The position numbers and the translations under genes were made by a program. Below, one piece after another: positions 7,535 to 8,676 of a stretch of 11,964 nt of DNA (positions are counted from its first letter, which is position 1; every line of letters starts with the position of its first letter). The notes under the pieces are model-generated. The model did no database searches. It was not told the DNA's origin and saw only the letters and a list, made by a program, of their open reading frames with translations. Source of the DNA: a virus; the UHGV virus genome UHGV-1565976; one strand, written 5' to 3'.

Positions 7535-8023
7535 ATGAGTCTTTTGAATGAAGTTCAGAAATTCATTGAAGCCCATCCGGGGTGTACTTCCGGAGACATT
7601 GCGGATGCTTTTGCAGGTTACTCACGGCAGCGCGTTCTGCAGTCAGCAAGCAAGTTACGTCAGAGTGGGCGTGTGGCTCACCGTTGTGAAGGAGATACAC
7701 GCAGACATTTCCCGCGCCTGACTGAGAGAGCACAGGAGCCGGAACCACAACCAGTTCGTGAAACCAGACCTGTGCGCAATTTCTGTGTCGGCACTAACGA
7801 CCCGCAGGTGATTTTGTGCCTGACTCGCCAGGCGGAAGAACTGGAGTCCAGGGGCTTATTCCGTCGAGCTGCAACGGTGTGGATGGAGGCATTCCGTGAA
7901 AGCCACTCCCAGCCAGAACGAAACAATTTTCTGGCGCATCGTGAGCGGTGCTTACGGAAAAGCAGCAAGCGCGCTGCATCGGGTGAAGAGTGGTATCTGT
8001 CAGGGAATTACGTGGGGGCTTAA
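7535..8023 (+). CDS. PerC/Pch-like family protein with N-terminal winged-helix-like region (162 aa)
   Basis: ATG 7535 with GGGGG 5 nt upstream; C-terminal ...ESRGLFRRAATVWMEAFRES...HRERCLRKS resembles the PerC motif as remembered; unverified. Confidence 0.45.
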   Translation: MSLLNEVQKFIEAHPGCTSGDIADAFAGYSRQRVLQSASKLRQSGRVAHRCEGDTRRHFPRLTERAQEPEPQPVRETRPVRNFCVGTNDPQVILCLTRQAEELESRGLFRRAATVWMEAFRESHSQPERNNFLAHRERCLRKSSKRAASGEEWYLSGNYVGA

Positions 8024-8676
8024 TGAGTAATAAATATTGCCAGGCGCTGGTGGAGCTGCGGAACAAACCAGCCCATGAACTGAAGGAAGTGGGCGATCAG
8101 TGGCGCACGCCGGACAACATTTTCTGGGGAATTAACACCCTGTTTGGCCCGTTTGTTCTGGATCTGTTCACTGATGGTGATAACGCCAAATGTGCCGCTT
8201 ATTACACTGCGGAAGACAACGCGCTGGCGCATGACTGGTCTGAACGTCTTGCGGAGCTTAAAGGTGCTGCCTTTGGTAATCCCCCGTACAGCCGCGCCAG
8301 TCAGCATGAGGGGCAATACATCATCGGCATGCGTTACATCATGAAACATGCCAGTGCCATGCGTGATAAAGGCGGGCGCTATGTTTTCCTGATCAAAGCT
8401 GCCACCAGCGAAGTGTGGTGGCCGGAAGATGCAGATCATATTGCTTTTATTCGCGGGCGTATTGGTTTTGAACTGCCTGCCTGGTTTATCCCGAAAGACG
8501 AAAAGCAGGTGCCAACAGGTGCTTTCTTCGCTGGTGCTATTGCTGTTTTCGACAAGACCTGGAAGGGACCGGCAATCAGCTACATAGGGCGCGATGAACT
8601 TGAGGCATGTGGTGAGGCGTTTCTGGCGCAGGTTCGCCAGCAGGCGGAAAAACTGGTCAGGGAGATGGCGGCATGA
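8023..8676 (+). CDS. phage Dam-like DNA N6-adenine methyltransferase (217 aa)
   Basis: Catalytic FGNPPY motif; TAATG overlap with the upstream stop; GGGGG 5 nt upstream; no adjacent restriction endonuclease, so orphan. Confidence 0.8.
   Translation: MSNKYCQALVELRNKPAHELKEVGDQWRTPDNIFWGINTLFGPFVLDLFTDGDNAKCAAYYTAEDNALAHDWSERLAELKGAAFGNPPYSRASQHEGQYIIGMRYIMKHASAMRDKGGRYVFLIKAATSEVWWPEDADHIAFIRGRIGFELPAWFIPKDEKQVPTGAFFAGAIAVFDKTWKGPAISYIGRDELEACGEAFLAQVRQQAEKLVREMAA

Follow-up and report, generated by a model that had tools for sequence, protein, structure and literature searches.

Sequence and profile evidence place the gene at positions 8023-8676 in the small T1/HP1 "Dam" family (PF05869/TIGR01712), as a phage-type N6-adenine methyltransferase. 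It was found in a window (the whole 11,964-nucleotide stretch of viral DNA that was analyzed) that represents the immunity and early-right region of a lambdoid prophage. The reading we prefer, and regard as probable, is that the product is a small, single-domain, AdoMet-dependent DNA N6-adenine methyltransferase, an orphan made as a delayed-early protein that would methylate replicating phage DNA, likely at GATC. The first-pass annotation had located both the gene (a 217-codon ORF) and its NPPY motif exactly. Coordinates of the gene, its motifs, and the surrounding genes are given in Table 1.

Table 1. Features of the methyltransferase gene and its surroundings, numbered from the first letter of the window.
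Feature	Position	Strand	Evidence or comment
cI-type repressor (HTH + S24 peptidase)	3757-4449	-	
O-like replication protein	6675-7532	+	
PerC-family protein (yfdN-like), overlaps methyltransferase start	7529..8023	+	PF06069, E = 2.5e-8; phrog_1324 transcriptional activator; context only
Five-G run, Shine-Dalgarno-like, 4 nt before the methyltransferase ATG	8014..8018	+	Sequence; a sixth G joins the PerC and methyltransferase reading frames
Methyltransferase CDS, 217 aa, PF05869/TIGR01712 (T1/HP1 Dam) type	8023..8676	+	Intact ORF, profile matches, near-identical annotated copies
WxTP codons (W27-R-T29-P30), family-invariant N-terminal motif	8101..8112	+	Alignment
L46-D47 ... N54 codons, predicted strand beta-1 ending in invariant Asp, then invariant Asn	8158..8184	+	Alignment; model strand 44-50
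NPPY codons N86-P87-P88-Y89 (aat ccc ccg tac), motif IV, putative catalytic loop positioning the target adenine N6	8278..8289	+	Sequence, alignment, model
Codon 101 ATC (Ile), private T101I, in clade-conserved I-T-G-M segment just past the NPPY-proximal hairpin	8323..8325	+	Homologue comparison
LexA DNA-binding-domain-only protein, 108 aa, overlaps methyltransferase stop	8673..8999	+	PF01726, E = 2.9e-19 over 1-65; context only
RusA	8996-9391	+	
DUF968/HNH-like protein	10371-11366		
Antiterminator Q	11369-11776		

Family membership was evident in three profile libraries. The protein scored 156 bits against PF05869, "DNA N-6-adenine-methyltransferase (Dam)" (cut-off 28.1, E = 9.8e-46, profile positions 3-167 of 169), and 255.6 bits against the NCBIfam equivalog TIGR01712, "phage N-6-adenine-methyltransferase" (cut-off 97.05, E = 1.5e-76, positions 1-165 of 165), while the REBASE-derived PADLOC model MTase_II (217 positions) matched it over its full length with 521 bits. 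A chance match is far ruled out by these scores. The PADLOC label itself denotes a REBASE class and no partner was detected by it.

Conservation of individual residues was examined in an alignment with five other proteins, all of them confirmed PF05869 members: phage T1 Dam, Haemophilus phage HP1 Dam, the Min27 nin-region methyltransferase, staphylococcal phage 80 Dam, and Henu4_2, a T1-like phage enzyme. W27, T29, P30, L46, D47, N54, L68, W72, N86-Y89, L123, R146, and F149 were invariant, and these positions were kept in 35 to 38 of 38 diverse homologues. D47 was present in all 38 and N54 in 37, and both NPPY and WxTP were found in 35 to 37. The earlier description of an NPPY-bearing phage-type N6-adenine methyltransferase was thus borne out by the profile scores and the retained motifs. 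The loss of key catalytic residues on alignment, which the first-pass annotation had named as grounds for abandoning the assignment, was not seen, and every family-invariant residue is in place. Relative to the Stx2a_WGPS2 and SfV copies, the gene differed by 14-17 synonymous and 2-3 non-synonymous changes, with dN/dS of 0.04-0.05, and it is therefore under purifying selection.

The gene is packed tightly between its neighbors. Its start ATG (8023) shares a base with the stop codon of the preceding ORF (TAA, 8021-8023), giving the sequence TAATG, and its TGA stop (8674-8676) overlaps the ATG of the next ORF at 8673 (ATGA). An in-frame GTG at 7990 is a possible alternative start upstream of this ATG; the ATG is the start used by RefSeq in a copy of the gene that is 99.8% identical.

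This is an already known gene, annotated, very common, and a routine part of lambdoid prophages. A stretch of ~2.1 kb spanning it was 96.5-97.5% identical to SfV, mEp460, Stx2a- and Stx2c-converting phages, and the PhiR phages of ECOR13. At an identity of at least 95%, the gene was found in 2120 of 5426 complete E. coli genomes (~39%). Copies in the O104:H4 outbreak lineage were 99.8% identical and lay in a collinear prophage; the RefSeq protein is WP_000066917.1, 'phage N-6-adenine-methyltransferase', and the Shigella phage SfV copy is annotated as dam, "DNA adenine methylase" (AAL89443.1). A literature search found no experimental activity for the window protein, the SfV-type copies, or their close clade. 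RefSeq viral records misname the same gene "phosphoadenosine phosphosulfate reductase", a label that appears to derive from fusion proteins. This label is an error and should not be spread.

No restriction-endonuclease domain was detected in any sizeable ORF of the window, and no restriction-type domain was detected in the loci of relatives (ten loci, including those of O104:H4, Cronobacter, Salmonella, and LLS). With no partner nuclease, the methyltransferase is an orphan, in agreement with what had been proposed from the lack of an adjacent restriction gene. Membership in a type II restriction-modification system was likewise not found, the neighbors being PerC-like, LexA-domain, RusA, KilA-N, DUF968/HNH-like, and Q proteins. 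The DUF968/HNH-like protein was considered as a hidden nuclease partner and provisionally rejected; it is not adjacent to the methyltransferase and is absent from T1, HP1, phage 80, and KPN N54.

A structural model was computed with AlphaFold2 from 38 sequences of 32-99% identity (a model built with only 20 close homologues reached a pLDDT of 40 and was set aside). With a pLDDT of 92.6 and a pTM of 0.88, the model consisted of one alpha/beta domain plus a long C-terminal helix (190-216), that is, a predicted compact, single-domain class I methyltransferase fold with no separate target-recognition domain. D47 lies on a strand at 44-50, and NPPY follows directly on a strand at 82-85; the model also has a small hairpin (93-101), a helix (103-115), and further strands. 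In the mechanism that we propose, invariant Asp47, which closes the first strand, would together with N54 and the D71-W72 region hold AdoMet in place of the usual FxGxG loop; the AdoMet-binding role of L46-D47...N54 is suggested by analogy with class I methyltransferase architecture. The NPPY loop (86-89), just past the fourth strand, would then take a flipped-out adenine and catalyze transfer of the methyl group to N6.

The nearest solved folds to the model were E. coli Dam, PCIF1, MmeI, and T4 Dam, all of them distant. PCIF1, an RNA cap adenosine methyltransferase, was the top Foldseek match, and the KsgA/Erm RNA enzymes scored similarly; METTL3-METTL14 chains were poor matches (probability at most 0.1). 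The predicted fold supports an adenine-N6 methyltransferase core and, taken alone, would fit DNA and RNA substrates alike. Searches of the PDB by sequence and with the 38-sequence profile gave no real match to this family, which is without a solved structure although it includes PamA, a protein linked to S. aureus virulence.

Other lines of evidence favor DNA as the putative substrate. Relatives that are 67-74% identical include natural fusions with C5-cytosine DNA methylase domains (three proteins), and the Cronobacter orthologue (~81% identical) is encoded directly upstream of a gene for a 660-aa C5 DNA methylase. The third line is PamA, a PF05869 member of 141 aa (NPPY at 64-67) from the S. 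aureus prophage mPhi11, which renders genomic DNA sensitive to DpnI, indicating GATC methylation, an activity that is abolished by mutation of NPPY (PMC12435837). The residue numbering of PamA matches that of phage 80 Dam, and the latter shares 36% identity with the window protein over the core (E = 6e-22).

T1 Dam and HP1 Dam, two founding members of the family, are both reported to methylate GATC. PMC7556043 names HP1 Dam only as one of the Dam-like proteins of phages and cites the paper on its cloning. By analogy, we consider GATC the likelier target of the window enzyme, because the traceable family members with reported activity (PamA, HP1 Dam, and T1 Dam) methylate this site; the window protein is only 23-42% identical to the tested relatives. 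The first-pass annotation had called the target specificity unknown. That caution stands insofar as GATC is a prediction from relatives, and gives way insofar as the tested family members narrow the field. GATC sites in the window numbered 42 versus 47-55 expected, which is unremarkable and uninformative either way.

The most credible competitor, although an unlikely one, is an active DNA adenine methyltransferase with a target other than GATC, either a different short motif or a relaxed specificity that would give broad anti-restriction cover. In the clade to which the window protein belongs, NPPY is flanked by clade-specific insertions (at about residues 74-80 and 92-101), and the segment 150-166 is longer than in T1, HP1, and PamA-type proteins, differences from the family alignment that could alter target recognition. 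The predicted fold also lacks a separate recognition domain. Non-specific prophage methyltransferases do exist, namely M.EcoGII (PMC5778455) and Hia5 (PMC3299994), and the pairing or fusion with C5 methylases in relatives resembles a multi-specificity protection cassette. However, the two non-specific enzymes come from other families (beta-class PF01555-type and alpha-class Dam-related, respectively), whereas every traceable member of this family with reported activity methylates GATC. Moreover, the gene is carried by more than a third of the complete E. coli genomes, yet some E. coli methylome papers assign all detected motifs to other enzymes, a result that fits either a GATC target or silence in the lysogen.

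A related and more doubtful proposal is that the enterobacterial lambdoid clade may recognize a non-GATC or relaxed target, with the product of an overlapping neighbor (PerC-like or LexA-domain) possibly modulating it. If this were true, a silent adenine-methylation specificity, switched on at prophage induction, would be present in ~39% of complete E. coli genomes. The target of this widespread clade is a gap in E. coli methylome annotation. For the most part, the significance of the gene lies in its correct annotation.

The genomic context points to the lytic phase. After cI, the plus strand carries a Cro-like HTH gene, a CII (CP76) gene, an Ash/Rha protein, and a small ORF, followed by the O-like gene, and from the O-like gene through RusA successive genes share 1 or 4 bases. 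A KilA-N protein, the DUF968/HNH-like protein, and antiterminator Q come after RusA. A consensus scan beside the methyltransferase gene found no sigma-70-like promoter and no terminator. Given a cI-controlled overlapping chain and no promoter of its own in the scan, expression in lytic growth is likelier than in the lysogen; most likely the enzyme is a delayed-early protein that appears only upon induction or infection. Expressed at that time, it would methylate rapidly replicating phage DNA; progeny DNA would be fully methylated whatever the supply of host Dam, and would be shielded from restriction enzymes blocked by the same methylation. Of the two roles offered by the first-pass annotation, protection of phage DNA from host restriction and alteration of host methylation in the lysogen, the second is accordingly the weaker.

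Some lysogenic expression may nevertheless occur, as the annotation of SfV places a predicted promoter for dam (-35/-10) within the upstream ORF. It is also the case that PamA alters host transcription and virulence from its prophage under native control (PMC12435837). Both observations speak for a gene that acts mainly as a lysogenic epigenetic regulator of host genes, like PamA, from a promoter of its own. We judge this improbable for the window copy, in which the equivalent of the SfV promoter (TGGCGC ... TACGGA, ~7932-7958) is a poor match to consensus and was missed by the promoter scan, and the gene overlaps both neighbors in a cI-repressed early-right chain. In addition, E. coli Dam already methylates GATC, and an extra GATC enzyme would add little.

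About as improbable is a loss of function in the window copy, with T101I reducing or eliminating activity in a prophage gene that is decaying. Residue 101 was Thr in 19 of 20 close homologues and in 33 of 38 diverse ones (down to ~35% identity), and Ile was seen in the window alone, where it is the sole protein difference from the O104:H4 copy. Among the matches listed, only E. coli cM8a had DNA that was 100% identical. Truncated remnants of the methyltransferase are common as well, with many fragments covering residues 1 to ~88, and 1725 of the 2120 complete genomes with a match had a coverage of at least 80%. Yet the ORF is intact, with the full set of family-invariant catalytic residues; residue 101 sits in a clade-specific insertion that is missing from the T1, HP1, and phage 80 enzymes and from the active enzymes of the T1, HP1, and PamA type; and the neighboring prophage genes are intact too. 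An active DNA methyltransferase remains our preferred reading of this allele.

The two genes that overlap the methyltransferase both encode DNA-binding-type domains, and the upstream PerC gene is found in the same position in the Salmonella and Cronobacter loci. The downstream 108-aa protein was matched by TIGR00498 over positions 1-91 of 203 only, below the cut-off. A precedent for a winged-helix partner exists in the Stx-prophage "Dam-like" M.EcoPA8orf6770P, a prophage enzyme formerly annotated as a Dam-type DNA methylase, which prefers 16S rRNA when bound to the adjacent winged-helix protein PNB-2 (PMC10810198). On this model, the PerC-like or LexA-domain neighbor would be needed as a specificity subunit and RNA would possibly be the substrate, to which the top rank of PCIF1 among the fold matches would correspond.

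Neither neighbor, however, accompanies every relative of the methyltransferase gene. PerC is missing in phage LLS, in which O is followed by the methyltransferase, the Salmonella copies have the methyltransferase followed directly by RusA with no LexA-domain gene, and neither neighbor is found in T1, HP1, phage 80, or KPN N54. In Cronobacter, the C5 methylase gene stands between the methyltransferase orthologue and the LexA-domain gene. Fusion proteins were also examined. The protein database contains PerC-methyltransferase fusions of 380 aa, reading ...VGGLMSNKY, that arise when the five-G run gains one more G. In complete-genome records, the five-G junction was exact in 1507 and the six-G junction in none, with one six-G candidate record carrying a mismatch. 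These fusions were therefore rejected as a functional link and treated as rare frameshifts or sequencing errors of one extra G. Methyltransferase-LexA-domain fusions (three proteins) were isolated, anomalous records carrying indels and were disregarded. Several points make a requirement for a neighboring partner, with or without RNA as substrate, highly improbable: the precedent comes from a different family, the MT-A70 enzymes with DPPW; each neighbor is missing beside some relatives; the PerC fusions stem from one extra G; where relatives occur naturally fused, the second domain is a DNA methylase; and PamA alone methylates DNA in vivo (PMC12435837).

The orphan DNA methyltransferase that we favor can be set against several known systems. 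The characterized prophage enzymes M.EcoGV and M.EcoPA8orf6770P resemble it in being prophage-encoded, annotated as Dam-like, carried by E. coli lambdoid/Stx phages, and located beside winged-helix genes (PMC10810198). They are, however, MT-A70 proteins with DPPW and a METTL3-like fold, whereas the window protein has NPPY and gave no Pfam match to an MT-A70 domain. The O104:H4 copy was also compared with the characterized enzymes of C227-11 and could be assigned to none of them: M.EcoGIX is plasmid-borne, M.EcoGI and M.EcoGII are beta-class, and M.EcoGV is MT-A70. A search on M.EcoGIV gave no result. Hia5 and Hin1523 were rejected as family members, being Dam-related alpha-class enzymes with DPPY and FxGxG.

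Canonical Dam enzymes (E. coli Dam, T4 Dam, and DpnM; alpha class, PF02086) align with the model over ~110 residues at 8-9% identity. They have FxGxG, an inserted target-recognition domain, and DPPY; the window protein has none of these and carries NPPY instead, and a Pfam search of it for PF02086 gave no match. The term "Dam-like", as used in the first-pass annotation, thus serves as a nickname and for the probable target; it does not hold as a statement of homology to PF02086, with neither FxGxG nor a recognition domain present.

PamA shares with the window protein the NPPY active site, the orphan state, and a gene position immediately following the replication genes in a temperate phage. 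It is shorter by 76 residues, and its host is without a Dam of its own and has its expression rewired from the lysogen, whereas the host of the window phage possesses Dam and the surroundings of the gene suggest the lytic phase. T1 Dam, HP1 Dam, and the nin-region methyltransferase of Stx phages (Min27/933W-type), founding members of PF05869, share WxTP, LD, N, NPPY, and GRxxF with the window protein and, like it, are small, phage-borne, and without a restriction partner. They are only 23-29% identical to it and are without the insertions around NPPY that mark its clade; T1 Dam has an N-terminal extension of 45 residues, in contrast to the long C-terminal helix of the window protein.

SfV dam and the copies in mEp460, the Stx2a and Stx2c phages, the PhiR phages, and E. 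coli prophages (WP_000066917.1) are the same gene, with DNA that is 96.5-100% identical, neighbors included. The copies from SfV, mEp460, Stx2, PhiR, and O104:H4 also encode 217 aa, with one to three residue differences from the window protein, and the SfV-type loci share with the window the gene order O-like, PerC-like, methyltransferase, LexA-domain, and RusA. The window allele is set apart from the SfV/O104:H4-type copies by Ile at position 101, where these have Thr.

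The N6-adenine methyltransferase gene of the window (8023-8676) is also present in RefSeq viral records NC_003444 (phage SfV), NC_019716 (phage mEp460) and NC_049941, in which it is labelled a phosphoadenosine phosphosulfate (PAPS) reductase. This name is also carried by the PHROG family phrog_33262, a profile of 495 positions that the methyltransferase matches only over positions 283-492. Genuine fusions of PAPS-reductase and Dam domains do occur (proteins P0129 and P0143), and the label on the methyltransferase gene is probably an error carried over from such fusions.

C5-cytosine DNA methylase domains were likewise found fused to close relatives of the methyltransferase (P0126, P0128 and P0133; 67-74% identity). 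In Cronobacter prophages, the adenine methylase gene is followed directly by a gene for a 660-aa C5 methylase (4861-6843 of comparison locus L011). The adenine and C5 methylase pair looks like a two-enzyme DNA-modification cassette occupying the same prophage slot.

Immediately upstream of the methyltransferase start lies a run of five Gs (see table), in which one additional G joins the PerC-like ORF to the methyltransferase ORF. Protein databases contain many 380-aa PerC-methyltransferase "fusion" entries of this extra-G kind. Among complete E. coli genomes, 1,507 records carry the exact five-G sequence and none carries an exact six-G junction; a single record, UTME-3, possibly combines six Gs with a nearby mismatch. 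In phage Stx2a_WGPS2 (AP012537.1; 2636-4437 of locus L002), the PerC-like gene is interrupted by IS629 and the methyltransferase gene directly downstream is intact; the insertion could have a polar effect on methyltransferase expression.

Within the methyltransferase itself, residue 101 is Ile in the window, whereas Thr occupies this position in 33 of 38 diverse and 19 of 20 close homologues. Among the matches listed, only E. coli cM8a carried DNA identical to the window's gene.

Features of the window (all coordinates in nucleotides unless marked as residues)
Feature	Position	Strand	Details
Ash + Rha ORF, 382 aa	5348-6496	+	Ash-family domain, residues 117-212; Rha regulatory domain, residues 222-307
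Five-G run directly 5' of methyltransferase start	8014-8018	+	
Methyltransferase codon 101, ATC (Ile)	8323-8325	+	
LexA DNA-binding-domain-only protein, 108 aa	8673-8999	+	PF01726, residues 1-65
DUF968 protein	10371-11366	+	HNH-nuclease match (PF16784) is weak, falling slightly short of the cut-off

The LexA-domain product covers only positions 1-91 of the 203 in the LexA model and lacks the S24 cleavage domain. While the phage grows, this protein could imitate LexA at SOS boxes, itself being non-cleavable. The Salmonella methyltransferase orthologue has no adjoining LexA-domain gene. The DUF968 gene lies two to three genes 3' of the methyltransferase in the window, and the relatives from E. 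coli, Salmonella, Cronobacter and phage LLS share this arrangement, which may reflect either mere conservation of module order or a functional link. The Ash/Rha ORF sits between a CII-like gene on one side and a replication gene on the other; its 116-residue N-terminal part had no family match.

Many database fragments of the methyltransferase end where the NPPY motif lies, at approximately residue 87-90; P0158 and P0166-P0173 span residues 1 to ~88. The yfdM gene of E. coli K-12 CPS-53 may be a remnant of this kind. YfdM, described as a putative Dam methylase, has been reported to promote growth of the T1-like phage SW1 (preprint, bioRxiv 10.1101/413146). If yfdM is such a remnant, this growth-promoting effect would be odd for a fragment without most of the catalytic domain.
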